Assembly: GCA_051439505.1 (NCBI GenBank)
Contig: JBFRWI010000232.1
Coordinates: forward strand, 1-45,306
Direction of reading: 5' to 3'
Source: Hormoscilla sp.
GTDB lineage: Bacteria > Cyanobacteriota > Cyanobacteriia > Cyanobacteriales > Desertifilaceae
Length of the DNA: 45,306 bases
Position 1 is the first letter of the stretch. Each line of letters starts with the position of its first letter. Shown here one piece after another: positions 17,880-33,674 of the stretch. The position numbers and the translations under genes are program-made. The notes beneath the pieces were generated by a model, which had not been told where the DNA came from, made no database searches, and worked only from the letters and a program-made list of their open reading frames with translations.

Positions 17880-18030
17880 GGGTGCGGTCAAAAGTAGTTG
17901 CGGCGGATCCCCCCCAAACCCCCCCTTGCAAAAGGGGGGGCAACCGGCGCGCCCCCCTTTTTAAGGGGGGTTTGGGGGGATCCCACGACTGGGAAGATCC
18001 ATGAACGATCAACTGGTTTTGACCATACCC
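17880..18030. mobile_element. ~150-bp MITE, copy 1
   Basis: TIR GGGTGCGGTCAAAA...TTTTGACCATACCC; 9-bp flanking duplication CCACACCCC (17871-17879 / 18031-18039); internal G/C-run palindrome. Confidence 0.85.
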
Positions 18031-18593: not shown

Positions 18594-18715
18594 AATTAAA
18601 ATGGCGATCGCTGCCTAATTAAAATGGTGGGCGGTGCCTAATTAAAATGATGGGCCGTGCCTATTTTACATGGTAGGCAGTGCCTAATTAAAATGGTGGG
18701 CGGTGCCCACCCTAC
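18594..18715. repeat. 23-bp tandem repeat (~5 units) ending in a REP
   Basis: GCCTAATTAAAATGGTGGGCGGT-type units at 18613, 18636, 18659, 18682. Confidence 0.85.
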
Positions 18716-21700
18716 AGTAAAGACAACACCTTATCAAACTCAAAGTTATCCAGACAAGTTTTCAGGGCCGCAGCCAGAGGGGCATTCTGGCTACTAATAT
18801 CTTCCGTTACAGTAGTCATTAAGTCTAAATCTCCTTCTAATAACGCCTGTTCTAAACTCGCTATTAATTCCCCTGGTAATGCTGATATCGCCTCCGCCGT
18901 CATCACTTCTTCATCGGAAATGCCTTGCTGTTCATCGGTTTTCCGTTCCTCTTCGTACACATAACTCACCCCTATATGGGTGTTCATCATCTCGAATATT
19001 TCTGTTTCCCGAAAGGGCTTCCGCAGAAAATCATCACACCCCGCTTCTATTACCACCGCTTTTTCTTCTTCTAATACGTTGGCCGTCAGGGCGATGATTT
19101 TTGCAGTTTCCCCTTTGGGACTGGCTTTAATAGCTCTGGTGGCTTCGTAACCGTCCATCACGGGCATGCGCATATCCATCCAGATCAGATCCGGCTCCCA
19201 TTCGGAGAAGATCTCCACAGCTTCTTGCCCGTTGTTCGCTTCCTTGAGCTCAAACCCCAGGGGGTTCAGCAACTCGATCAATAGTTTGCGGTTGATGGGT
19301 TTGTCATCTACGATCAAAATCCGGTACCGGGGTTGGTTGGGTGCCAAGGCGATGATTTGGCGAGTGGGTTTGTTGCTCTCTATGTCCGCCCCTTCTACCC
19401 GGGGAACCTCTATGTCAAAGTAGAAAACCGTGCCTTTCCCTACTTGAGACCTCACTCCCATGTCTCCACCCATTAATTGCACGAATTGCCGACTGATGGG
19501 TAGCCCTAAACCCGTTCCTTCTTGAGCTTGTTTTCCCGTGCTGGTTTGCACGAAGGCTTCAAATAGACTGTCTATTTCCTCCGGGGCGATCCCGGCCCCC
19601 GTGTCGGCGATTTCAAAATGTATTGCTACTCGTTCATTGCCTGGGTCTTGGATGTGGTCAAAACCCGTCCCAGTGGTCGGATCCCCCCAAACCCCCCTTA
19701 AGAAGGGGGGCTTTGAAGCCCCCCCTTTTGCAAGGGGGGGTTTGGGGGGGATCCCTGCTACCGTCGCCCCCACCGACACCCCTCCCTCTTTGGTGAACTT
19801 CAGGGCGTTGTTTAGTAGGTTGATGATCACTTGACGTAGCTTTACTGCGTCCGTGCGGATGTATCGGGGCACCTCTGGAGACCTGTCGCAGGCCAACTGC
19901 AAGCCTTTCTCCTTTGCTTTCAGCCCGAACATGTCTTCCATATCGTCCAGCAGGCGATAGAGATCGAAGTTCTTTTCATTGAGGGTGGTTTTCCCTGACT
20001 CGATCTTGGATAAGTCGAGGACGTTGTTGATCAAGGTCAGCAGATGTTCCCCACTGCGGGTGATGATGCCCAAGTTTTCCGCATATTCTTTACTCAGACC
20101 CCGACTGCGCAGCATTAGTTGAGAAAATCCCAATATGGCGTTCAAGGGACTGCGCAGTTCGTGAGACATGTTGGCGATAAAGGTACTTTTCGCTTTGTTG
20201 GCGGACTGTGCCTCTTCGGTGGCGGCGGCCAGTTCTGCCGTGCGTTCTTCTACTTTTACCTCCAAGCTGTGGCTGTAGTCTTCTAACTGGGTATATAGTT
20301 GGGCGTTTTCGATGGAAATGGCAGCTTGAGTGGAGAGGGTTTGCAACAGTTCCACCCGATCGCGCGTAAATGTGTTGGTCGCCAGGTTATTTTCCAGATA
20401 GAGAATGCCGCTAACGCGATTTTGGTTCACCAGAGGAGTGCAAAGTATGGATTTCGGTTTATTGACAATGATATAGGGATCCCGGGTATATTCTCCTTCA
20501 TTGGCAGCATCGTTTAAGATCGCATCCTTCTTCGTGCGATCGACATAATTAATAATCCCTAAAGGAAGCAATGCACTGTCTGGTGCTTCAGTTTCGATGG
20601 GAATGGATTGTAATATTCTCCCTTCCCTATTGTCAACGTTCCCTTCCGCTTCAATAAACCAACCCTCGCCTCTTTTCAGGAGGAGAAAGCCTTTTTCTGC
20701 CCCCGCATTTGCGATCGCGATTTCCATGAGTTTCCCCAGCAAGTTTTTCAAGACAATTTCTCCTGCCAGGGTTTGCGAGGATTGAATTACTGTAGCAATG
20801 TCAAGTGATTCTGTTGCCCTTCCCGTCGTGGTCCCGATCGTCCCTTGAGATCCGGAAGATTGAGAGACGAACCATTGGGGATACTTTTCTTCTAACTGTT
20901 CGACTTTCCGTTTTGCGCCCCAGATTTGATAGCCTTGACGTGCCTTTCTCATATAGAGTTTGGCAAAATCCTCTTTCCCTCGTGACAGCCAGAATTTAGC
21001 CGCAAGTTCGTTGCCTAATGCTTCGTTTTGGATGAACTCGTGTTCTTTGGCGGATTCTATCGCGCGATCGTATAGTTCCACTGCCTCTGGCCATTTATCG
21101 GAAATGCGAGCCATTTCTGCCGCGACTAGGAGATATTTATGAAGAAAATTTTCCGGGCAATGCTCCGCCCAATTTTTCATATCTTTTTGGTTTGTTTCTA
21201 ATTGCTGCCAATAACATTTGCGCTCTTCTAATGATGCTTCCAAATAATAGTAAATCAGTGTTAGCGAGTAATAAAAATTATGCTTTGCTATGGATATAGT
21301 TGCTGGAATATAATCACACAACTTAGTTGTCCGTTCTAATACGGTTAATTTAGCCGGTTTTTCGTATATGTAAAGAACTTGAATTTTCAATATCTCATAA
21401 AAACAGAGGGCTGCCATTGTTTTAGTTCTTTCACAAGTTTCAATAAAATCTGATTCAGATACGTCCTCTAATTCAAAACAAAATTGATCTTGACTTTTTC
21501 CAACTAAGTTTTTGATAATTATCTTAGCTGCTAGTATACAATTAGTTGCCCAGGAATTCTGAGTTTCTTGACTAAAACTAAGACTGCGCTCTATTTCTTT
21601 TAGGATTATTTCTAAATTTATTCCCTGATATATAATGCTATATAATTTATAAGTTAGGGTATAACCAACAAATTGAAAATCTCCAACTTGTAAACTGACA

Positions 21701-24700
21701 TCAACTCCTTCATCATTAACCTTCTCTGATAATTTAATATGAACTAACCAAGGCATCGTCATATTCCCATGAAGCTGACATGCTAATCCCTTAGACGCTA
21801 AATCTTGATACTTATCGGATAACTTCATACCAAGAGAGCCAAATTCATAACCTGCACGATAGTCTTTGAGAGCATAAGCATTAATTGCTCCAAAAAAACT
21901 ATAGGCCATTGGAGATATTGATGTATGTCCGTATTTTATACTAAGATTCACCATCTTGCTCCCAACAATACACATCAATCTTGAATCTAATATCCAAGTA
22001 GCAGCAAAAATACGAGATAGTATTTTTAAGACTGCTCTTTTGTCTAATTGCTGCATTTCAGAACTGTTATATAATTCCTCGATCGAGCGATTACCTATGC
22101 TTTGACGATATTCCATCAATTCTTCTCCAAAAGCCGTTTGCAAGTCGTCTTTTGGCAAATTACTTCCAAGTGTTTGAAGAGCAACCCTTCCCAATTCTAT
22201 CGCCTCTTTAATTTGCCCTTGTAATGTGACTTGAACAATTTGGAGATAGTAAAATTCTGCACTATCAAGGGGTGATTGCGCTTGCTCGATGGCTCGTTTA
22301 ATTAAGCTCTGTGATTCTAGAAAATTTCCATTTAGATACTCAATTTCAGCGAGTTCCTTATAAAGCTCAAATGCCATTTTATAGCAAGTTGTCCAAATAT
22401 CCCCAGGAAATTCATTTTTAGCAGTCATAAGATAATCTCTAGCTGCTGTATAAGCAATCGCTTCTTTCGCTTTTTTCCCTGCATATAAATTAATGTCTAA
22501 TATCTCGATCTTTTCTGCTTTATCTTCTACTAGATCCAGTCCTTTATTAAAGTGATCGACTAAAGTAAATATTTTTTCTTGTTGTTCATTTTTATTAAGG
22601 TTTGCCTGTAATAATTTACCAATTTGCAGATGAACAGTTTTCCGACTATCGCGATCTATAAGATTATAAGCTGCTTGTTGGATTCGATCGTGCCGAAATT
22701 TATAATCTTGAATCACTAAGGTTGAGTCAACTGGAGCTTCCGGGGTTGTTTGTAGCTCTGAAGTCGGTTGAACCAATCCTTGTTGGATCGCCGGTAAAAG
22801 GTCTCTAAAAGTTTCTGGAGGAGATTTTTCATAAATAATCGAGAGCGTATCTAGATCGAATTTATTACCGATACAAGCACTCAAACGCAAGGTCTTCTGC
22901 GTTTCCTCTGAAAGCGTTCTCAATTTGCCAATCATTAAATCTACCACATTATCGGTAATACCTAGCGCTTTTATTTCAGCTATATCCCACTCCCAACCTC
23001 GACTATTGCTATTGAATGTTAAGAGTTTTTCTTGCTCAATCGTTTTGATAAATTCATTAACAAAGAAGGGATTACCAGAAGTTTTTTGTATTATTAACTC
23101 TGTTAGGGAAATAACCGTTTCTGGTCCGCAATCAAGTGTTTCTACGAGAAGTTGAGTAATATCCTCTGATTTTAGAGGCATTAAACTAATCAGATTGACA
23201 ATCGCACCTTGTTTTCTCAATCGTTCAATTAAAACTATCGTTGGATGATTTGCATCCACTTCATTATCTCGATAGGCCCCCAGTAAAAGTAAGGACTCGA
23301 TCTGACTATCTGTCATCATTAACTCGATCAATTTTAGAGTCCCAAAATCTGCCCATTGCAGGTCGTCTAAAAAGAGAATTATAGGATGCGACTTCTGGCA
23401 AAATACCCGGATAAAATTCTGAAAAACTTGATTGAAGCGATTTTGAGCCTGGGAGGGTTCTAGAGGTTTAATTGGAGGTTGAGAACCAATAATTTGTTCA
23501 ATTTCCGGAATCACGTCAACAATCACTTGTCCGTTAATTCCCAAAGCTTTTTCTAGCCTCTCCCGCCATTGGTTCAATTGAGCTTTGCTTTCTGTTAGCA
23601 ACTGTCCCACGAGGGATTGAAAAGCCGAAACAATAGCCGAATAAGGAATATTGCGTTGAAATTGGTCAAATTTCCCAGCTATAAAATAACCCCGTTTTTG
23701 GGATAAAGGTTTATACAATTCTTGAATTAGTGCGGTTTTCCCAATACCAGAATATCCGCCTACTAACATCATTTCAACGCGATTTTGAGTTGCTTCTGTT
23801 TCATCTTGTGGAATTTCTGGCTGGGTAACTCTCCTAAATGTTGCCAGTAATTGCTCGATTTCTAAATCGCGACCGTAGAGTTTCTGGGGGATTTGTAGTT
23901 GCTCGACTAAGTCGTAACGGGCGAGAGGAAATTCGGCAATTTCTCCAGTTTCTTTTAACTGGGAGTAACAGTTTTCTAAATCTGCTTTCAGTCCCGAGGC
24001 ACTTTGATAACGTTCCTCTGCTGTTTTTGCTAGCAACTTCATCACTATTTTAGAGATTGCTGTGGGAATTGATGACTCAATTTTGTGAGGTGCAATGGGT
24101 TCTCGTGCCATATGGCAATGAACCAACTCTAGTGGATCTTTGCTGTCAAAGAGTAACTGATGAGTTAATAGTTTATAAAAAGTTGCTCCTAGAGAATACA
24201 AGTCAGTCCTGTAATCAACAGCTCGATTCATTCTCCCAGTTTGCTCTGGAGAGATATATGCTAACGTTCCTTCTAAAACATCCGGATTTTTAATGATTGG
24301 ATTTTCTCTGGCAAAGATGCTAGAAATCCCAAAGTCGATAATCTTGACTTGCCCTGTTTCAGTATTTAAAATAATATTAGCCGGATTAATATCCTTATGA
24401 ATAATATTATTCCCATTAATTTCTTCTAGAGCTTTGGCAAGTTGAATGGCAATCTCAAGAAATTCTAAATGAGTAAAACTCCCAGATTGCAAAAATATAT
24501 CTAGAGATTGACCGCCGAAATCTTCTAAAACAATGGCAAGGGTATTTTCATAAGGTAGCAGATCGTAAGCAGCGATCGCTCCTTCGATATTGATAGATCG
24601 AGTGATTTCGTATTCTTGCTTGTATCGCGTCAGTTCCGAAGGAGTAGGATAATCCTGTTTGAGCACTTTTAAGATCACAGTGCGATCGTCTGTCTTATCT

Positions 24701-24774
24701 TTAGCACGATAAACTAGAGATTTTGCACTCTCGTAAATTCTGGCAACAATTTGATAATCTGCAACTGTACTCAT
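18712..24774 (-). CDS. Multidomain hybrid kinase: Ser/Thr kinase - AAA ATPase - helical region - GAF - His kinase - receiver
   Basis: IHKDINPAN, IIDFG, GTLAYISPEQ; Walker A GYSGIGKT and Walker B LFLDDLQWAD; GAF SILCTPL...GILYLENN; H-box MSHELRSPLNAILGF; NALKFT, DTGAGI, GTGLGL; REC ILIVDD, WMDMRMP, KPF; start 24774 or 24852. Confidence 0.95.
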   Translation of the reverse strand: MSTVADYQIVARIYESAKSLVYRAKDKTDDRTVILKVLKQDYPTPSELTRYKQEYEITRSINIEGAIAAYDLLPYENTLAIVLEDFGGQSLDIFLQSGSFTHLEFLEIAIQLAKALEEINGNNIIHKDINPANIILNTETGQVKIIDFGISSIFARENPIIKNPDVLEGTLAYISPEQTGRMNRAVDYRTDLYSLGATFYKLLTHQLLFDSKDPLELVHCHMAREPIAPHKIESSIPTAISKIVMKLLAKTAEERYQSASGLKADLENCYSQLKETGEIAEFPLARYDLVEQLQIPQKLYGRDLEIEQLLATFRRVTQPEIPQDETEATQNRVEMMLVGGYSGIGKTALIQELYKPLSQKRGYFIAGKFDQFQRNIPYSAIVSAFQSLVGQLLTESKAQLNQWRERLEKALGINGQVIVDVIPEIEQIIGSQPPIKPLEPSQAQNRFNQVFQNFIRVFCQKSHPIILFLDDLQWADFGTLKLIELMMTDSQIESLLLLGAYRDNEVDANHPTIVLIERLRKQGAIVNLISLMPLKSEDITQLLVETLDCGPETVISLTELIIQKTSGNPFFVNEFIKTIEQEKLLTFNSNSRGWEWDIAEIKALGITDNVVDLMIGKLRTLSEETQKTLRLSACIGNKFDLDTLSIIYEKSPPETFRDLLPAIQQGLVQPTSELQTTPEAPVDSTLVIQDYKFRHDRIQQAAYNLIDRDSRKTVHLQIGKLLQANLNKNEQQEKIFTLVDHFNKGLDLVEDKAEKIEILDINLYAGKKAKEAIAYTAARDYLMTAKNEFPGDIWTTCYKMAFELYKELAEIEYLNGNFLESQSLIKRAIEQAQSPLDSAEFYYLQIVQVTLQGQIKEAIELGRVALQTLGSNLPKDDLQTAFGEELMEYRQSIGNRSIEELYNSSEMQQLDKRAVLKILSRIFAATWILDSRLMCIVGSKMVNLSIKYGHTSISPMAYSFFGAINAYALKDYRAGYEFGSLGMKLSDKYQDLASKGLACQLHGNMTMPWLVHIKLSEKVNDEGVDVSLQVGDFQFVGYTLTYKLYSIIYQGINLEIILKEIERSLSFSQETQNSWATNCILAAKIIIKNLVGKSQDQFCFELEDVSESDFIETCERTKTMAALCFYEILKIQVLYIYEKPAKLTVLERTTKLCDYIPATISIAKHNFYYSLTLIYYYLEASLEERKCYWQQLETNQKDMKNWAEHCPENFLHKYLLVAAEMARISDKWPEAVELYDRAIESAKEHEFIQNEALGNELAAKFWLSRGKEDFAKLYMRKARQGYQIWGAKRKVEQLEEKYPQWFVSQSSGSQGTIGTTTGRATESLDIATVIQSSQTLAGEIVLKNLLGKLMEIAIANAGAEKGFLLLKRGEGWFIEAEGNVDNREGRILQSIPIETEAPDSALLPLGIINYVDRTKKDAILNDAANEGEYTRDPYIIVNKPKSILCTPLVNQNRVSGILYLENNLATNTFTRDRVELLQTLSTQAAISIENAQLYTQLEDYSHSLEVKVEERTAELAAATEEAQSANKAKSTFIANMSHELRSPLNAILGFSQLMLRSRGLSKEYAENLGIITRSGEHLLTLINNVLDLSKIESGKTTLNEKNFDLYRLLDDMEDMFGLKAKEKGLQLACDRSPEVPRYIRTDAVKLRQVIINLLNNALKFTKEGGVSVGATVAGIPPKPPLAKGGASKPPFLRGVWGDPTTGTGFDHIQDPGNERVAIHFEIADTGAGIAPEEIDSLFEAFVQTSTGKQAQEGTGLGLPISRQFVQLMGGDMGVRSQVGKGTVFYFDIEVPRVEGADIESNKPTRQIIALAPNQPRYRILIVDDKPINRKLLIELLNPLGFELKEANNGQEAVEIFSEWEPDLIWMDMRMPVMDGYEATRAIKASPKGETAKIIALTANVLEEEKAVVIEAGCDDFLRKPFRETEIFEMMNTHIGVSYVYEEERKTDEQQGISDEEVMTAEAISALPGELIASLEQALLEGDLDLMTTVTEDISSQNAPLAAALKTCLDNFEFDKVLSLL
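19650..19755 (-). mobile_element. Internally deleted MITE copy inserted in frame in the kinase gene
   Basis: Reverse complement matches the core and right end of the 17880-18030 element; translated as GIPPKPPLAKGGASKPPFLRGVWGDPTTGTGFDHI. Confidence 0.85.
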
Positions 24775-24943
24775 TTTGCTTCCTTGTAAACTTGCGATTG
24801 CTTGGCTATCTAAGATAATTATGGCATCTTCTGCATCAAATTGTCTCATCATCTCCTGGGGGGGCGATCGCCCCCCTCAACGAACCCGGTAGGAAGGGTT
24901 TGTCCTACCTGCTTCTCCTCATGTTGATTGTATTTCTCGCGAT

Positions 24944-25567
24944 TTATGAAGCACCAAAGGGAATATATAGAGAAGGAGGAAGATAGTTACCTCCGGTATC
25001 TATATTTTGAGCCCAATTTAATAACTGCGGTTCCGTGACCGTGTATTCATTCAAAGCGGGACGAGGTGGATAAGCAATCTCTGCAACATACTGACGATAT
25101 CCCGTCTCAATAAAGCTTCCTACAAATTCTGGGATCACCCGACATGTGAACATTTTTGCAAACTCGGGATCTTTTGTGAAAACAAAGTCTTCATCAGATA
25201 GCTTCTTCAACACCTCTGCTAAAGTCACCTCAATTCCGTTGTCTTTGAGATACGGAACATCATCATTGTTTCCCAAAAGCATCGATTGGATATACCCTGA
25301 CAACAAGTTGGCTGTCTCTTTTGCGTTTTCGTCATCGTAAGACTCATATGCTATTGTATTGAGACCTTGCTGTTGGAACGTGGCATTGAAGAATTTCTTC
25401 AGAGCCAACTCTTGTTTTGCCTTGCTCGGATCGTCCTTGAAAGCGAGGAGATCGGTCCACGACCATGCAATTATTCGAGACCACTGCATTGTCACATCCT
25501 TGATTTTGGATTTGTCGGCAGGATTTTGTAAAGAATATGGCAACGACGTTTCCCAGTTGTATGTCAT
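24944..25567 (-). CDS. Hypothetical protein with NHLP/nitrile-hydratase-alpha-like leader motifs; candidate YcaO substrate
   Basis: Strong AGGAG RBS; WSRIIAWSWTD and IAYPPRP resemble the AxxxAxAWxD and LxLPxRP leader motifs; located in the YcaO cluster. Confidence 0.5.
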   Translation of the reverse strand: MTYNWETSLPYSLQNPADKSKIKDVTMQWSRIIAWSWTDLLAFKDDPSKAKQELALKKFFNATFQQQGLNTIAYESYDDENAKETANLLSGYIQSMLLGNNDDVPYLKDNGIEVTLAEVLKKLSDEDFVFTKDPEFAKMFTCRVIPEFVGSFIETGYRQYVAEIAYPPRPALNEYTVTEPQLLNWAQNIDTGGNYLPPSLYIPFGAS

Positions 25568-25649
25568 TGTAACTGTCTCCTAGAATAAAGGTGGATAGAT
25601 TGACAAGCCAAACCAGTCGAAGAGTATTGTTGATTTACTCAGCATTTCT

Positions 25650-27362
25650 TTAATTATCAGGACTCTGAGCATAGTTTAGCAAGAAGCTAAAATCTGCGTG
25701 AATCTTTGGCAGATTTGGCTTAAATGGTACATTTCCCCAACTTGGCAGATCTGCCTTCACGTGACAATTAATGCAGGAAGTCCCTATGGGTGGATCTGTC
25801 TGAACGTAAGGTTCCAGAGCGACATTCGCTAAGTCTGCTGACGGTAGAATAGTCGGCTGTTCGTAGGGAAAATTGGGAGAGTTTAACCATTGTACCCCAA
25901 TCAGCTCGTATTTTTGCCAAATTGAATCTGATTTTATTTCCCCTAGTGCTTCTTGCCACTCGTCATTCAACGATTTAGCAACATTAGTAATTGGAATCAC
26001 GCGGGTGATTTGGGATGGGATTTGTTCTTTCAGCTTACCATCTTTTTTTGTTACTGCATGAGGATATTCATCACGCCAAAGGTATGGTTTTTCCGCGTAG
26101 GGGTGATTTTCCTCGCAGTTTTCCTTACAGCCAGGATTAAATAGATTGTAGTAAGGTTTGTCACTTGTTTGGCCTTCATCTGGTGCATTGTCCAAATGCT
26201 CGAATGTTGCCCAAGACCAACCCTGCTGGCTAGTTTTCTGGACAATATGAAAACCAATTAAGGCAACCGGGACAGTTACCTCTTTTTCCTTAGCACCATC
26301 TGCGGTCATATCTTCTTTAACCAAGAAGGTACGAAAGGTCGTGTAATACTTAGACTCGATCGTACCAGGTATTGGATCTGGCAAAACCATCCAAGCTGCC
26401 TTGAGTTCGATCGCACCAACATCATTATTGTCCAAGCAGGGGAACCGATCTTCATAGGTGCCATCTGGATCCATCTGACTACATACTAAGGCAAAGGGGT
26501 TAGCAGCAGGGTCTGCTGGGGCATCAACATTGTTGTTGAAGCCTTGCAGGTTAGCGGCAGAATACCACTCGTTATCAACTATTTGCCCGACCTCTATCGG
26601 GTTCAGGCGAATCTCGCTGAGAATATAATTCTTGGATTGGTCAACTAATACCTCGCGATCTGGGAGTTTAATAGATATTGCACGGTCAATCTCTTCCGCA
26701 ATTTTGGGCTCTTGTTGTTGTTTGAATCGCTCAACATCTCGCTCAACATCTTGTAGGAACAATTGCAGGGATTCAAACACTTCCGTACCCACTCTATCGT
26801 TGAACCTATCTATTTCCCCTGCTGCTTCACCTAGGCGAATTTTTGGCGAGGCATTTTGAATATTTTGGAAGCCTGCTTTTTCTTCACATTGTGGCGGGAC
26901 TGTTGGTATAACAGGACTGGGATCTTTTCCCTCTGGCAGAAATATCTGCTCTGGATCATTATAGAATTCCCAAACGCGAGGAGCATCTGATGCTTCGCCA
27001 ATGTTATTTCCTAAAGGTTTACCCTCACAGTCTGCTGGCCAATTCAAAGCCACAAAAGCTTGCCATGCAAACTCACCAAAGGCAATTTCCGGATTATAGG
27101 GGGGCAAACTGGAACTCCTCTTGGGATTAACTGGAATCTGAGAGGTTATCTCTGGTGCTGGTACAGATTTCTGATTATCGGTGAAAAAACTGGAACTCCT
27201 CTTTGGATTAACCGGAATCTGAGAGGTTATCTCTGGTGCCGGTACAGAACTAGCACGGGACCAAGCATTTTCAGCAAATAGCACCCAGGAACTGCAACCA
27301 ACTACCAAAGCCAGAATTGTCACCCAAATCGTCACCAGGCTTTGATTCTGTTTCATCTTCAT
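25650..27362 (-). CDS. Exported protein with a single C-terminal CxxCH (cytochrome c family)
   Basis: Hydrophobic N-terminal signal (possible VVGC lipobox); FAWQAFVALNWP, IELKAAW, WATFEH, TSCINCH, ADFSFLL; start 27362 or 27389. Confidence 0.65.
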   Translation of the reverse strand: MKMKQNQSLVTIWVTILALVVGCSSWVLFAENAWSRASSVPAPEITSQIPVNPKRSSSFFTDNQKSVPAPEITSQIPVNPKRSSSLPPYNPEIAFGEFAWQAFVALNWPADCEGKPLGNNIGEASDAPRVWEFYNDPEQIFLPEGKDPSPVIPTVPPQCEEKAGFQNIQNASPKIRLGEAAGEIDRFNDRVGTEVFESLQLFLQDVERDVERFKQQQEPKIAEEIDRAISIKLPDREVLVDQSKNYILSEIRLNPIEVGQIVDNEWYSAANLQGFNNNVDAPADPAANPFALVCSQMDPDGTYEDRFPCLDNNDVGAIELKAAWMVLPDPIPGTIESKYYTTFRTFLVKEDMTADGAKEKEVTVPVALIGFHIVQKTSQQGWSWATFEHLDNAPDEGQTSDKPYYNLFNPGCKENCEENHPYAEKPYLWRDEYPHAVTKKDGKLKEQIPSQITRVIPITNVAKSLNDEWQEALGEIKSDSIWQKYELIGVQWLNSPNFPYEQPTILPSADLANVALEPYVQTDPPIGTSCINCHVKADLPSWGNVPFKPNLPKIHADFSFLLNYAQSPDN

Positions 27363-27581
27363 TTTCAGCCAACGATTACAGTAATGCACTAAGCCACTCT
27401 ACGTCATTAACGATCTCTATCGTAAGCTTAACCGAGACTCAACGACTTGGATTGCTCACAGCTTCCCAATACTCTATCCCAACAACTTTTCTTTGTCAAG
27501 TCTTTTTCTGTCAATCTTGTCAATCTCTCTAAATTCCGTATTAATACTTGAATAGAGACAACCAAGGCGATCGCGAATGAG

Positions 27582-28670
27582 TCAATTTAACCCATAGAAT
27601 CTCCTGGGATTATCCCAAAGGATCTTCTGAAGAACTTTTTGGGATATTTTTCCCTCAAGGGCCACCATATCGGCAACAACATCAGGTTTGTGATCCATAT
27701 GGGGATAGTCGGAGCCAAAAATCAGATTATCTTCCCCAAGTTCCTCTAGCAGCTTGGGAATATAAGTTTCTGAGGGTTCCACAGCAATGAAGCACTGGCG
27801 GCGAAAATATTCTGACGGTTTCATCTTCACCCGATCGCCCACTTCCCACTGCAAGTCTTCGTACTCGCGATCGAGTCGCCACAACCAGTAAGGCAACCAA
27901 CCGCAACCGGATTCCAGAAATCCCACCCGCAGTTGAGGATGATTTTCCAACACTCCCCCTTCAATCAGCGTCAATAACGCCATCATTTGTTCCATGGGAT
28001 GAGAACAGGCATGGAGGGCAAAACGAGAATGGAAGCGATCGGCACCCGCACTGGGAACTTTGCTGTGAGTTGTCTCGTGTAGACTAACCGCAATGTCAAG
28101 TTTCTCACACTCCGTCCAAAACTGTCCGTAAGCCCGATCGCTGAGTAATCTGCCCTTCACGGGATTGGGGCGCAAATAGACAGCTTTCCAGCCAAAATCG
28201 GCAATCCGTCGCAACTCTAGCAGCATTTCTTCAGGATCGTGAAGATTAACCACACCCACCCCTTTTAATATTGCTGGGTTATAGCTACAAAAGTCTCGCA
28301 GCCAACTATTGTAAGCGCGGATATAAGCCCCGACTTGTGGGGAAGCCATTTGATCTACACCGCTAATCCATGAGAGATAAGTCGGATAAACAAAGGCAAT
28401 ATCGACACCCATTTGGTACATCGCTTGCACTTGCGATTCTGGGTTAAACTCCCGGGCCAAAGATTGAGGGTGCGATCGGGCCACTTCTTTAGCACCTTCA
28501 TCAACCAGCTTTTGAGAATATTTGTTCATGACGGATACCCCTTGAATCTTGAGATCCGGAGTGGGAGCCAAATCCCGAAAAGCCGGTTCTAGATAAGATT
28601 GCCACAGAGAATGGGGTTCGTAGACATGGGCGTCTGCATCAATGATTCTATAACCGTTTATCATGACCAA
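27582..28670 (-). CDS. Amidohydrolase_2-family metalloenzyme
   Basis: IIDADAHVYEP, SLHE, FLESGCGWLPY, FGSDYPH, ILWDNPRRFY. Confidence 0.92.
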   Translation of the reverse strand: MVMINGYRIIDADAHVYEPHSLWQSYLEPAFRDLAPTPDLKIQGVSVMNKYSQKLVDEGAKEVARSHPQSLAREFNPESQVQAMYQMGVDIAFVYPTYLSWISGVDQMASPQVGAYIRAYNSWLRDFCSYNPAILKGVGVVNLHDPEEMLLELRRIADFGWKAVYLRPNPVKGRLLSDRAYGQFWTECEKLDIAVSLHETTHSKVPSAGADRFHSRFALHACSHPMEQMMALLTLIEGGVLENHPQLRVGFLESGCGWLPYWLWRLDREYEDLQWEVGDRVKMKPSEYFRRQCFIAVEPSETYIPKLLEELGEDNLIFGSDYPHMDHKPDVVADMVALEGKISQKVLQKILWDNPRRFYGLN

Positions 28671-28699
28671 TAAGATAGAGATTGTTAAACATTCGCTCC

Positions 28700-28906
28700 C
28701 AATACTTCTCAGTTAAGCATATAGGTTGTCATTGCGAGGGGGGACGTAGCGATCAACTTATGCTTTTATGAGTTACCCCCCCCCCCCCGAAGCAATCCCC
28801 GCCCTAGTTATCGGGGAGATTGCTTCGGGGGAGAAGATCCCAACAGCGATTCCGACATGTCTGTTTGGGCCCCCTCGCAATGACAGTTTTTAACCGATAA
28901 GTATTG
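28700..28906. mobile_element. ~207-bp MITE with 17-bp TIRs and 10-bp target duplication
   Basis: CAATACTTCTCAGTTAA...TTAACCGATAAGTATTG; flanks CATTCGCTCC / CATTCACTCC; internal TGTCATTGCGAG...CTCGCAATGACA palindrome. Confidence 0.8.
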
Positions 28907-28919
28907 CATTCACTCCTAG

Positions 28920-31226
28920 TTACATCCACAAGGGTATTGGGTTCAGTTCTGCCTCCGTCAAAGGTTTATCGAGCCAACCCATTTCCACAGGAACATCATA
29001 CAGTCTTCCCGGACCCAATCGCTTCCAGAAATGTCGCAAACCCGGAACCATGACCTTAACCACATTTAACCCAATATCGGGGCGAGTTTGATCGAGAACC
29101 AGCATTTCCATGCCCTTTGCTTCCACAAGTTTCTGGCAATACTGAATATCTGCCAACAGGTCATCGTGCCAAACCATCCCATAGTCGCTATATTTTCTGG
29201 CAGTAACTTGGCCATCGGCGACCAAATAGGGCTGTTTTTCTAATGTTGCCGTTTGCCACCATTGCCAAACATGGGGTTCGACAGAGACATTATAGCGGGT
29301 ACTGCCATCGGAATTAGCATTCAAAACTGCTGGCAGCACTTGACCTACTTCTGTTAGGGCCCGTTGTAAAGCCAACTTCGGGTCAAAATGGGCCCCAAAC
29401 CCGAAAATTATATCTTCTATCGCGCGATCGCATCTTCTCGAAATTGCCCCAAAGATCGGAATCTGCAGATCGCTAGTGAGGTCCAAGACCCAGAGTTCCC
29501 GCCCCAGGGCATGATAGTATTCCACAACCGCTTGAAAATAGGGATCCTCAAAACTTTCTAAGGCGATCGCGGGACGTGAGATCCGATTGTACCACCACAA
29601 AGCCACTCCATCCCGTTCCACCAATTCCATAAAACCCTGTAAAATAGCTTCTTCAACAGTATTCCCCGCCGCACAACCGTTCGTATCGGCCCAACAAGCA
29701 GGTTTTTCCGGTTTAGGATAGCCGTAATAACAATAGGCAGTCGGTAAATATTTAAAATCTTGCTGAGTCAAAGACCACACAGGAGTCCAGTCCATTACCT
29801 CACTTTCATCAAAGGGTTCCGGGACACGCTGAAACCAATCTTGATTCCTGGCATTCCATTGAATGCGATCGCGGTATTGAGTCTGGCTAAAATTCATGCA
29901 ACTATTGGGATGAATAGCTTTCTCACCGAGGGATGCATAGCTATCAGTTATGCGAAGTTCATCTCCTTGAAATACCCCCGAATAGCGTTCGATCGCCTCA
30001 CCCAACCCGCTAGCTTTTGCTTGAGCATCCGTTCGTCCTTTCCCCCCACTTTTCCCACCAATATTCTTTTGCAAGTCCAGTAAGGAATCAAACATCGTCA
30101 AGTGATGGTGTTGGGCCCGATAAATATGGGTTAAACCGTTGCCTGCCGTTATTTTATCGAGGGATCGGACAACTCCGGTAATGGTATCGATCTGATGTCG
30201 ATACTTAGCCAAAGTTTCCTCGGGGGTAAAGCAACGATGCCCTCCATCCGACGTAAACTTCTTTTTCCGACTGCCGATCATAACTGGGATAGGTTTCTTT
30301 TGCGGTTTAAGGTATCCACAACTGGTACATTGAGGGCGTTTGACCACCGGGTGATTTTGAATAGCTATAACTCGGGTATCATAAGTAGCAATCACTCCTT
30401 CCAGCCGTTGATTTTCTCCCAGGATAATCCATTTAATAATCTCATTTGCCGCCATCAAGAGAGCCGTTTGTTGACTCATGGCCAGATTTACTAATGGAGG
30501 GGTTAAAGGGGAAGAGTCAGTTCTGTGTCGCTCAATAAATGCTTCTGAGGGTCTGTTATTGCGCCATCTTTGAGCCAGACATGCCCAACAAGCAGTTTTC
30601 CCCGGAACAAATATCGGCCCGAACCAAAGCACCGTACCCACTGGTTTGACCAACATCCAGGAGCGCGATTTTTCCAAACATTGTTTATTAAAGGCATCCA
30701 GACCTTCTTGGAGATAGCTATCTGTCAGGACTACAGCGATATCTGCCCCATCGAGATCTGCTATTTGCACCTGATGGTCTTCCAGGATAGCAATCAATTC
30801 CGAGGCAGCAACATCTCCAAAAGTTTTTACAGCCACTTTGGTATTTTGCAATCCCTGGCTGGCTGTTTTCATGTCAATATTTAATGTTTCACATAAGCTG
30901 TTTAATTGACTAACTATTTCTTCTGGGGTGCTTTCAACTATATAGCCTAACCTCTCCATCTCGAACAGAGCGAATTGAACTTTTGCTCCGATCTCCATTG
31001 CCACGCCCAAGGGATTTTTTTGAGTCCCGTCAACCTGGGGCCATCTTAAAATAGTTTCCTCTATTATTGCTTCCGTTGTGCGATCGCCATCTATCAAAGG
31101 AATTGATAGCTGATAGAGGGGGTCTGGGCTCAACAAAAAAGAAGCTCTTTCCGAGACAATAAATACCCCTTCCCCATCTACAACTTCTGCCCGATAACAT
31201 TTTTTCCACCTTGGTCTGTTTAACAT
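28920..31226 (-). CDS. Fused TOMM cyclodehydratase (leader-binding/E1-like domain + YcaO; PatD/TruD-like architecture)
   Basis: GPIFVPGKTACWACL and RPQCTSCG; DGGHR; GKG...AKASGLGEAIERYS; TNGCAAGNTVEEAILQGFMELVERD; C-terminus GRLYDVPV...ELNPIPLWM. Confidence 0.95.
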   Translation of the reverse strand: MLNRPRWKKCYRAEVVDGEGVFIVSERASFLLSPDPLYQLSIPLIDGDRTTEAIIEETILRWPQVDGTQKNPLGVAMEIGAKVQFALFEMERLGYIVESTPEEIVSQLNSLCETLNIDMKTASQGLQNTKVAVKTFGDVAASELIAILEDHQVQIADLDGADIAVVLTDSYLQEGLDAFNKQCLEKSRSWMLVKPVGTVLWFGPIFVPGKTACWACLAQRWRNNRPSEAFIERHRTDSSPLTPPLVNLAMSQQTALLMAANEIIKWIILGENQRLEGVIATYDTRVIAIQNHPVVKRPQCTSCGYLKPQKKPIPVMIGSRKKKFTSDGGHRCFTPEETLAKYRHQIDTITGVVRSLDKITAGNGLTHIYRAQHHHLTMFDSLLDLQKNIGGKSGGKGRTDAQAKASGLGEAIERYSGVFQGDELRITDSYASLGEKAIHPNSCMNFSQTQYRDRIQWNARNQDWFQRVPEPFDESEVMDWTPVWSLTQQDFKYLPTAYCYYGYPKPEKPACWADTNGCAAGNTVEEAILQGFMELVERDGVALWWYNRISRPAIALESFEDPYFQAVVEYYHALGRELWVLDLTSDLQIPIFGAISRRCDRAIEDIIFGFGAHFDPKLALQRALTEVGQVLPAVLNANSDGSTRYNVSVEPHVWQWWQTATLEKQPYLVADGQVTARKYSDYGMVWHDDLLADIQYCQKLVEAKGMEMLVLDQTRPDIGLNVVKVMVPGLRHFWKRLGPGRLYDVPVEMGWLDKPLTEAELNPIPLWM

Positions 31227-31472
31227 TTGTTCTCTATTCTTCTTTCCTCTATATAGTAGGGTGGGCACCGCCCACCATTTCCTGTTGGCAACAACAACCA
31301 ATTTCCCCTGACCACACCCCTGCGCTTTTACTCTCGTTCCTAGAGCGTCGGTCGATTAATCTTCCTTGACAAATTTCACCATCTGTGCATAGCCTCCTTA
31401 ATTACATATTCTGGTCGATAAATCTCCCTACTCCCTGCTCCCCTCTCCCTACTCCCTTTCTTCAACCTGGGG

Positions 31473-32342
31473 TCATCCATTTTCCAATTCCTTTAACAGA
31501 GCTTCAATTTTAGCCAGATGCACCCGCACCTTCTCCCATCGCTGGGGGTCTTGCTTCCAAAGTTTCGCCTTGTTCAATCTGCTACTAATGTCCTTAATTT
31601 GCACCTCTGGGGAACTCTTGGCCCGATCGGGTTGAAATTCGGCAATCTTTTCTTTGATTGCCGCCAAGGAAAGCTTCTTCTCCAGGGCTTCTTGGAGCAA
31701 TTCCTTTCTCGCCTCTTCATCTTTCACCGCCGCGATCGCCTTCGCCTTAGTATAGGCGATCTTCCCCTGACGCAACACTTCCAACATTTCTGGAGGCAAC
31801 TTCAGCAGGGGGAGGCGGTTGTTCACAAAAGACTCCCAACTCATGCCTCCTAGCTCCTCAAACACCTTCGTTACCGTCTCCATCTCTCCCTCATCAACCT
31901 TGTCCTTCACTTTCCCCTTCAACTGATTTTGCATCTGATGGAGTAGGGCCCCCACAGAATCAACTGCCAACTCCAGTCTAACGGACAGCAAAGTTAAAAT
32001 CCCTTCCGTTTCCTCTACAGGGTTCAGATCCTCTCGTTGCAGATTTTCAATCATAGAAATTTGCAACGCTTCCGAGTCCGTCAACTGCTTGATCGTTGCG
32101 GGCACTTCACTCAATCCCAATTCCCGCGCCGCACGATAGCGGCGTTCCCCCACCACCAGTTCGTACTTATACTCCCCCAGGTCACGAACTAAAAGGGGTT
32201 CAAGAATGCCATGATGCCTCACCGACTCAGTAAGCTGTGCCATCTTATCCGGGTCAAAGTATCGTCTCGGTTGCTGCGATGGAAGTTGAATCGACTCGAT
32301 CGATATGAGCATCGCTGCTGATTTCTTTTCTCCATTGCTCAT
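31473..32342 (-). CDS. ParB/RepB/Spo0J-family protein
   Basis: QPRRYFD, GILEPLLVR, GERRYRAA, ENLQREDLNPVEE; GGAG RBS before MSNGEKK. Confidence 0.92.
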   Translation of the reverse strand: MSNGEKKSAAMLISIESIQLPSQQPRRYFDPDKMAQLTESVRHHGILEPLLVRDLGEYKYELVVGERRYRAARELGLSEVPATIKQLTDSEALQISMIENLQREDLNPVEETEGILTLLSVRLELAVDSVGALLHQMQNQLKGKVKDKVDEGEMETVTKVFEELGGMSWESFVNNRLPLLKLPPEMLEVLRQGKIAYTKAKAIAAVKDEEARKELLQEALEKKLSLAAIKEKIAEFQPDRAKSSPEVQIKDISSRLNKAKLWKQDPQRWEKVRVHLAKIEALLKELENG

Positions 32343-32638: not shown

Positions 32639-32753
32639 TTGACAATTGACAATATCAATTATCAATTATCAATTATTCAGTCATATAATTAACAATTGAC
32701 AATTGACAATTGACAATTCCCCAATTATCAATTATCAATTATCAATTATCAAT
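32639..32753. repeat. STRR heptamer arrays (TTATCAA / TTGACAA)
   Basis: Multiple tandem 7-mers downstream of ribE. Confidence 0.9.
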
Positions 32754-33406
32754 TAAAGATATCCATGTTCCGCCAGAAAACTGGGAGTAATCTCAGCGGT
32801 AGAAGGTAACTGACCAGACCGGAGGAATTTTTCCACATATTTACCCAAGATATCCCCTTCCAGATTCACCCAACTGCCGATACCCAGGTCTTGCAGATTA
32901 GTTTCGGCAAAAGTATGGGGAATGACCGCAATTTTGAACCAAGTACCAGTGGAATTACAGTCAGCCACCGTCAGACTAACGCCATTGATAGCGATACTGC
33001 CCTTGGAGACAATGTAGGGAGACACCTGCCCTTCCGTGGTGGTAAAACTCATCTCCCAGGAAGTAGCAGTGGATACCGACTCCTGCAAGCAACCGGTGCC
33101 ATCCACATGACCGGTGACAAAATGTCCCCCCAACTTACTACCCACTCGCAGAGAAGTTTCCAGATTGACGCTACCCTGCCCAAGCAGCTGGCGTCCCAAA
33201 GTAGTACGGCGGAGGGTTTCGGGGGAGACAGCAACCACGAAGCCCCCAGGCAGGAGCTTTTCCACCGTCAGGCAGACGCCATCTACTGCTACACTGTCTC
33301 CGAGGGCCAAGTCATGCAAAATCGAGTCCGAGTCGCACTCGATCTGTAGCTGGTTTTCCCCGAAAGGTTTGAGAGTGCCTATTGCTTGAACTAATCCAGT
33401 AAACAC
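32753..33406 (-). CDS. ribE: Riboflavin synthase (alpha chain)
   Basis: GTG start giving MFTGLV; GDSVAVDGVCLTV, GGHFVTGHVDG, KGSIAINGVSLTV, IPHT, VNLEGD. Confidence 0.95.
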   Translation of the reverse strand: MFTGLVQAIGTLKPFGENQLQIECDSDSILHDLALGDSVAVDGVCLTVEKLLPGGFVVAVSPETLRRTTLGRQLLGQGSVNLETSLRVGSKLGGHFVTGHVDGTGCLQESVSTATSWEMSFTTTEGQVSPYIVSKGSIAINGVSLTVADCNSTGTWFKIAVIPHTFAETNLQDLGIGSWVNLEGDILGKYVEKFLRSGQLPSTAEITPSFLAEHGYL

Positions 33407-33674
33407 GATCGATAATTTTTTAACAGAGATTTGAGATTTCCCCCTGGGGAATAGGGTTACACTACAAAATACACCATGAGGGCAACAAGAAATGATGGTT
33501 GTGTTAGAACCAAGGTGAGGGCCGGTCACCACTGGACTCACGAGATGGGATGAACCGATAGAAGTATGACAAATATGAAAATTCCTTGGCTGTACCCACG
33601 ACCCAAGGGAGGCGATCGCCCCCGAGACAGCTGGTGCGGAGCAAAGGCGGTCGGTAATACCCACAGTAGCAACC

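Follow-up and report, generated by a model that had tools for sequence, protein, structure and literature searches.

A conserved cassette of YcaO and putative diiron oxygenase genes in Hormoscilla sp. that probably makes an aromatic ring at the end of a small folded protein

A conserved gene cassette of the cyanobacterium Hormoscilla sp. probably encodes the conversion of a small folded protein's last residue to an aromatic ring by two enzymes, a YcaO cyclodehydratase and a protein first annotated as an amidohydrolase, which most likely is a diiron azoline oxidase/decarboxylase. The fuller reading, in which this RiPP-type enzyme pair modifies a folded protein at its C-terminus and is coupled to a sensor kinase, is favored with moderate confidence. 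New at this locus are the single-Ser core, the link to a characterized decarboxylase clade and a P460-like marker of one subclade. The cassette offers a candidate for the missing natural substrate of those diiron thiazoline decarboxylases that form a dominant clade without known product. It leads to precise predictions of mass shifts on a protein that folds well and can be expressed, and provides a harmless, cyanobacterial route into the kinase-linked NHLP-Burk cluster type, whose product is without report in the literature searched. Should the modified tail be read by the kinase, RiPP chemistry would serve here as an intracellular signal and not to make a compound for export; the two enzymes, if they do cap the C-terminus of a protein with an azole, would also be useful tools for protein chemistry. 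A literature search, mostly of papers outside subscription, returned no description of the substrate or product of the cassette.

The locus and its genes

Six minus-strand open reading frames lie between ribE (32753–33664) and repeats at about 17.9–18.7 kb of the window (the whole 45,306-nt stretch analyzed, which is cyanobacterial DNA), and ORF and domain scans confirmed the co-oriented arrangement given in the first-pass annotation.

31473–32342, minus strand: ParB-family gene (PF02195)
28920–31226, minus strand: fused TIGR03882 + YcaO cyclodehydratase (RRE/E1-like plus YcaO), 768 aa, ATG at 31226 (PF02624, TIGR03604, TIGR03882)
27582–28664, minus strand: Amidohydro_2 (PF04909) protein, 360 aa, putative BarH/LynB7-type dinuclear diiron oxygenase (PtmU3 as top PDB match, ligand motifs)
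25650–27356, minus strand: CxxCH protein, 568 aa, one N-terminal hydrophobic segment; putative monoheme c, P460/c'-beta-like
24944–25567, minus strand: substrate candidate, 207 aa, no named family (87 family representatives by profile search; AlphaFold pLDDT 96)
24944–24967, minus strand: predicted core, tail YIPFGAS followed by the stop (terminal C/S/T bias in the family)
18712–24774, minus strand: STK-AAA_16-TPR-GAF-HisKA-HATPase-REC hybrid kinase, 2020 aa (domain scan)

The scan covered 28 proteins of the window and annotated neither a protease nor a dehydrogenase, exporter or short precursor within the cluster or adjoining it. The earlier claim that the usual YcaO partners are absent thus stands for the protease, the exporter and the short precursor, but probably not for the oxidizing enzyme, which the supposed amidohydrolase most likely supplies. 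The distance between ribE and birA is about 0.9 kb in two congeners, which places the block in an insertion of about 17 kb (window 15.7–32.75 kb) containing an M23 peptidase, a DUF2283 gene, the cassette and ParB; the gene for the 207-aa protein was found in none of four congeners. The ParB gene, counted before as the sixth cluster member, is an island passenger outside the conserved module: it is present in none of the 24 related chromosomal loci fetched around the oxygenase gene, and was seen in a single plasmid locus among related loci.

The two modifying enzymes

The YcaO protein matches PF02624 (E 1e-106) and exceeds the cut-offs of both TIGR03604 and TIGR03882. Its nearest solved structures are MusD, LynD and TruD (E 1e-193 or better), cyanobactin heterocyclases to which it is homologous over the full length; like them it has these domains fused and a C-terminus rich in proline (here NPIPLWM). 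Unlike the cyanobactin systems, the cassette has neither PatA/PatG proteases nor a PatE-type precursor with hypervariable cassettes, none of these having been found among the window proteins scanned or in the fetched loci. In a quick maximum likelihood tree of 38 rows, from which split or partial YcaOs were left out, the window enzyme falls inside an 11-row clade (SH-aLRT 97) in which every locus has the CxxCH gene; one CxxCH locus falls outside it. The genome has only one other YcaO, also fused (G000:C168; L015:9729–12776). Next to it is an NHLP-like gene of its own, which encodes 114 aa ending in CEGEMCLC and is the sole NHLP-model match of the genome, and no oxygenase, protease or exporter was seen near it; hence no canonical precursor and protease set elsewhere in the genome fits the window YcaO better.

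The PF04909 protein has as best PDB matches PtmU3 and then other dinuclear oxygenases, and its predicted ligands D11-A-H13, H196, E251 and D319-Y-P-H322-M-D324 match D11/H13/H197/E252/D320/H323/D325 of LynB7. The motifs DxH and DxPHx[D/E] have been reported to define the ARO enzymes and to be absent from characterized hydrolases, the diiron type having a hydrophilic gamma1, Phe or Tyr at gamma2 and a non-aromatic gamma4 (PMC13154177). Both motifs are present in the window oxygenase (D11-A-H13, D319-YPHMD), with gamma1 Ala, gamma2 Tyr (by alignment to PtmU3) and gamma4 Met; gamma1 is Ser in most orthologues. Alanine ranks as hydrophilic on the octanol scale. Relatives named "BarH protein" are 64–71% identical to the window oxygenase, and one from Crocosphaera ATCC 51142, which from its accession prefix we tentatively take to be B1WQZ4 of the decarboxylase study, is 69% identical. 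LynB7 converts thiazoline-4-carboxylate into thiazole with Fe2+ and O2 and requires the free carboxylate (PMC10127204), which would place the azoline at the very C-terminus. E0U9F9, about 60% identical to BarH/LynB7, performs the same decarboxylation, and its clade is described as dominant, without known product and with a thiazoline synthase neighbor in about 69% of cases (PMC13154177). From these likenesses we infer that the window oxygenase is orthologous to the E0U9F9 clade, and its most likely predicted activity is that of an azoline-4-carboxylate oxidative decarboxylase. It shares with BarH, LynB7, DolJ and E0U9F9 the fold family, length, all metal ligands and diiron second-sphere residues (PMC10127204, PMC13154177). 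BarH, LynB7 and DolJ act on NRPS products, whereas the YcaO-linked clade has no reported natural substrate. Thiazolines are the only substrates on which both characterized decarboxylases were tried, in contrast to the oxazoline predicted from the Ser-ended window substrate.

The substrate candidate

The proposal that the YcaO acts on the 207-aa protein, of which a very short C-terminal stretch would be the core, gains support from the family sequences, and no other substrate candidate is better; in the family only 2–5 residues follow the conserved YIP, the last of them mostly Cys, Ser or Thr. The protein matches no Pfam or NCBIfam family and has no predicted signal peptide. Of 96 proteins in the tail analysis, 72 had the terminal motif by the pattern used, and 67 of these end in C/S/T (Cys 21, Ser 23, Thr 23) against a background of 14%; the 24 left out comprise 13 fragments and 11 with tails that the pattern missed, all 11 of which also end in C/S/T. 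Non-cyclizable ends occur in the other 5 of the 72 and in three locus substrates ending LSCL. MusD also hydrolyzes terminal residues (PMC10885120), and similar trimming could be the reason for the minority Leu/Phe tails. In the window tail, the terminal Ser207 is the only cyclizable residue past YIP. Substrates ending in Ser make up 12 of 16 at loci with the CxxCH gene and 8 of 22 elsewhere.

The label "NHLP-like" can be kept for this protein only as a putative one. No NHLP model matches it, the structure searches list no match to a nitrile hydratase-like fold, the family consensus lacks the double-Gly at NHLP motif 2, and nothing in the genome exceeds the cut-off for the TIGR03796 exporter. 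The NHLP motif order (motif 1 ..AW.., PxxP) is kept, the family profile finds motif 1 of the NHLP encoded in this genome (E 1e-4 in 10 sequences), hhalign gave 11%, and the short substrates of a sister subtype match an NHLP profile, so that remote kinship is weak but plausible. NHLPs have been described as folded leaders (PMC12537861).

Conservation of the cassette

The co-conservation of partners, for which the first-pass annotation had called for a genome-neighborhood check, is borne out in related loci, although the genomes behind the counts are kin and the counts therefore non-independent. Close relatives of the 207-aa protein occur in eight named genomes, and all five partner types are present at seven of these loci, YcaO being split in one of them and the kinase cut off after its start by a contig edge in another; at the eighth, the contig ends ahead of the kinase. 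A plasmid of Gloeothece citriformis PCC 7424 carries the five genes in identical order. In a sample of 401 genomes drawn evenly from the phylum, Hormoscilla included, the substrate profile matches 20 and the PF04909 protein is found at E<=1e-100 in 25, again counting Hormoscilla. Around the oxygenase gene of the 24 others (of 400), up to 20 kb were fetched, and 40 kb for one. The kinase is present in 23 of these 24 loci and a full YcaO in 20 (of the other four, one has a fragment, one a contig edge and two none). The long substrate occurs in 19, frameshifted in one case, and a short NHLP-like gene in three. Three genomes are exceptions: in the first the oxygenase stands alone, in the second oxygenase, substrates and kinase occur but YcaO is missing from the fetched 20 kb, and the third has only degraded copies. 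No recurring protease or exporter was found in any fetched cassette locus. Identity among relatives is 59–87% for the oxygenase and 44–68% for YcaO, and the cassettes are patchily spread and often plasmid-borne. They are often flanked by AAA_35 genes and accompanied by variable tailoring genes (SagB, radical SAM/SPASM, DyP, methyltransferase) that look like small-molecule biosynthesis.

The heme protein and the kinase

The CxxCH protein, described before as an exported cluster partner, is predicted from its N-terminal hydrophobic segment to be secreted or membrane-anchored, but as a partner it is an accessory gene, present in 3 of the 24 oxygenase loci. It may be related to cytochrome P460/c'-beta (PMC11928373), given a tentative beta-sheet fold match over most of the target, its C-terminal CxxCH and a G-x4-K motif, the invariant K319 in GAIELK resembling McP460 GAILVK78; this lysine correspondence, and with it a Lys-heme cross-link as in P460, is putative, unbiased hhalign having aligned the CxxCH alone. 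It differs in its length (568 aa against about 150 aa) and in having no PF16694 match. We propose for it an accessory role in one subclade, in redox chemistry or in the binding of a ligand. Near the start of its gene, an 81-nt tandem duplication (27087–27248, 88% alike) doubles a 27-aa linker. In five other cyanobacterial genomes a P460-like domain is fused to two more CxxCH (about 680 aa), with no cassette genes seen in the short flanks.

The kinase had been called multi-sensor, whereas the domain scan gives one GAF plus TPRs. Its TPR region is 54–72% identical to that of the kinases of the ten closest cassette loci, against at most 40% for intact paralogs and 49% for one split piece. In a FastTree of 48 rows, which left out three near-duplicates, it falls in a group of cassette kinases (10 rows, support 100); taken together, cassette kinases form no fewer than three clades, with 14 ordinary paralogs interspersed between them. 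The YcaO and kinase trees divide into corresponding subclades. The outputs of cassette kinases vary (histidine kinase, SpoIIE phosphatase, AAA_35), and here the GC content is 37% in the N-terminal part, 51% in the output part and 48% in the genome, consistent with a swap; the N-terminal part is cassette-specific and the output part looks exchanged. A palindromic repeat of the genome's type lies in frame within the HATPase domain (19668–19754), with an inverted copy 1.7 kb off (17905–17994), and the second YcaO of the genome has a similar in-frame insert.

Proposed mechanism and alternatives

Judging from its family, the YcaO would use ATP to cyclodehydrate the last residue, which is Ser207 here and in relatives a Cys or Thr, and so form an azoline-4-carboxylate (-18 Da). 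The diiron oxygenase would then, with O2, carry out an oxidative decarboxylation to a terminal azole (a further -46 Da), an oxazole in the case of Ser; this reaction has been shown for homologues on thiazolines, and we extend it to the present enzyme and to oxazolines. These two steps are likely. From gene context, the modified protein would remain uncleaved and, given that no protease or exporter is conserved, cytoplasmic, its state being read by the co-inherited STK-AAA-TPR-GAF kinase; this third step is put forward tentatively, and the signalling role of the cassette is inferred. Such kinases are common (16 in the Hormoscilla genome), and this one could merely regulate the cassette. A more elaborate version is unlikely in its entirety: a RiPP-derived switch in which an irreversible C-terminal azole on an NHLP-derived protein is read by an NLR-like STK-AAA-TPR receptor with exchangeable outputs and, in one subclade, a P460-like redox or NO-type input. 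Its Ser-ended members would yield an oxazole product, without report for this enzyme family in the literature searched.

Alternatively, a small azole-terminated peptide might be cut from a leader of 200 residues by an unlinked protease or by the YcaO itself, the kinase controlling expression only. Typical tailoring enzymes in relatives and variable tails such as LSCC, TTCS and IAGS would suit such a product; NHLP and NHLP-Burk clusters are likewise described as lacking PatA/G proteases (PMC4603692), terminal residues are cleaved off by MusD, to which the window YcaO is closest among solved structures (PMC10885120), and the same type of oxygenase serves in NRPS pathways to products with C-terminal thiazoles (PMC10127204). 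The shortness of the tail beyond YIP, the missing double-Gly, the lack of a conserved protease or exporter and the retention of the kinase in nearly all loci argue against release, and we consider it improbable, though a serious contender. Less probable still is a conflict or defense module in which the modified protein is the guard or trigger for STAND-type NTPases (the AAA_16 kinase and flanking AAA_35). Its patchy, often plasmid-borne distribution, its place in an island missing from two congeners and the AAA_35 genes around many relatives would fit; the window has no AAA_35 gene or effector, and the oxygenase and YcaO are conserved to a degree unlike fast-evolving conflict parts. Finally, the gaps of 82–255 nt between genes and a substrate without family model would allow for a chance neighborhood, with the YcaO precursor elsewhere and an ordinary hydrolase in the PF04909 protein. 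Gene context and conservation counts contradict this, the ARO motifs are reported absent from characterized hydrolases (PMC13154177), and the only NHLP-model match adjoins the other YcaO, which makes coincidence very improbable.

Comparison with NHLP-Burk clusters and further variants

The resemblance to Burkholderia BMA_0021-type TOMM loci noted earlier does not amount to membership. None of 67 long-family proteins matches TIGR03795 at E<=0.1, profile-profile comparison of the substrate family with four BMA_0021-type proteins gave 1.3%, and the kinase scores 135.6 bits against a cut-off of 705.75 for the TIGR03903 kinase/cyclase model. NHLP-Burk clusters (Haft, Basu, and Mitchell 2010; PMC2887384), two plasmid examples of which were considered, share with the cassette a fused TIGR03882+TIGR03604 cyclodehydratase, a large Ser/Thr kinase-AAA fusion, a precursor of protein size whose C-terminal suffix is very short and of Cys type, and the lack of a double-Gly motif and of PatA/G proteases. 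They differ in a YcaO only about 33% identical, in having a tandem or fused precursor pair, one Cys-ended, where the window has a single Ser-ended gene of 207 aa, and in a kinase with cyclase where ours has GAF-HK-REC; the window locus has no FHA gene and adds the diiron oxygenase and the heme protein. Some relatives have substrate pairs, fusions or CC ends.

Several further variants were observed. An oxygenase relative labelled Beggiatoa/Parabeggiatoa is 64% identical, and for this reason the range of the cassette may extend past cyanobacteria. One variant locus (L055, G303:C7:67000–86900) has a TfuA-YcaO pair, a second fused YcaO and a kinase, without oxygenase, and a MACPF-domain gene lies divergently beside one cassette (L053:525–2892). 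A sister subtype has NHLP-like substrates of about 110 aa, two of them ending LRVC (L154:2509–2781, L156:13036–13377, L158:5706–6035), which match an NHLP profile, together with a DyP-domain gene and a SpoIIE-type kinase end.
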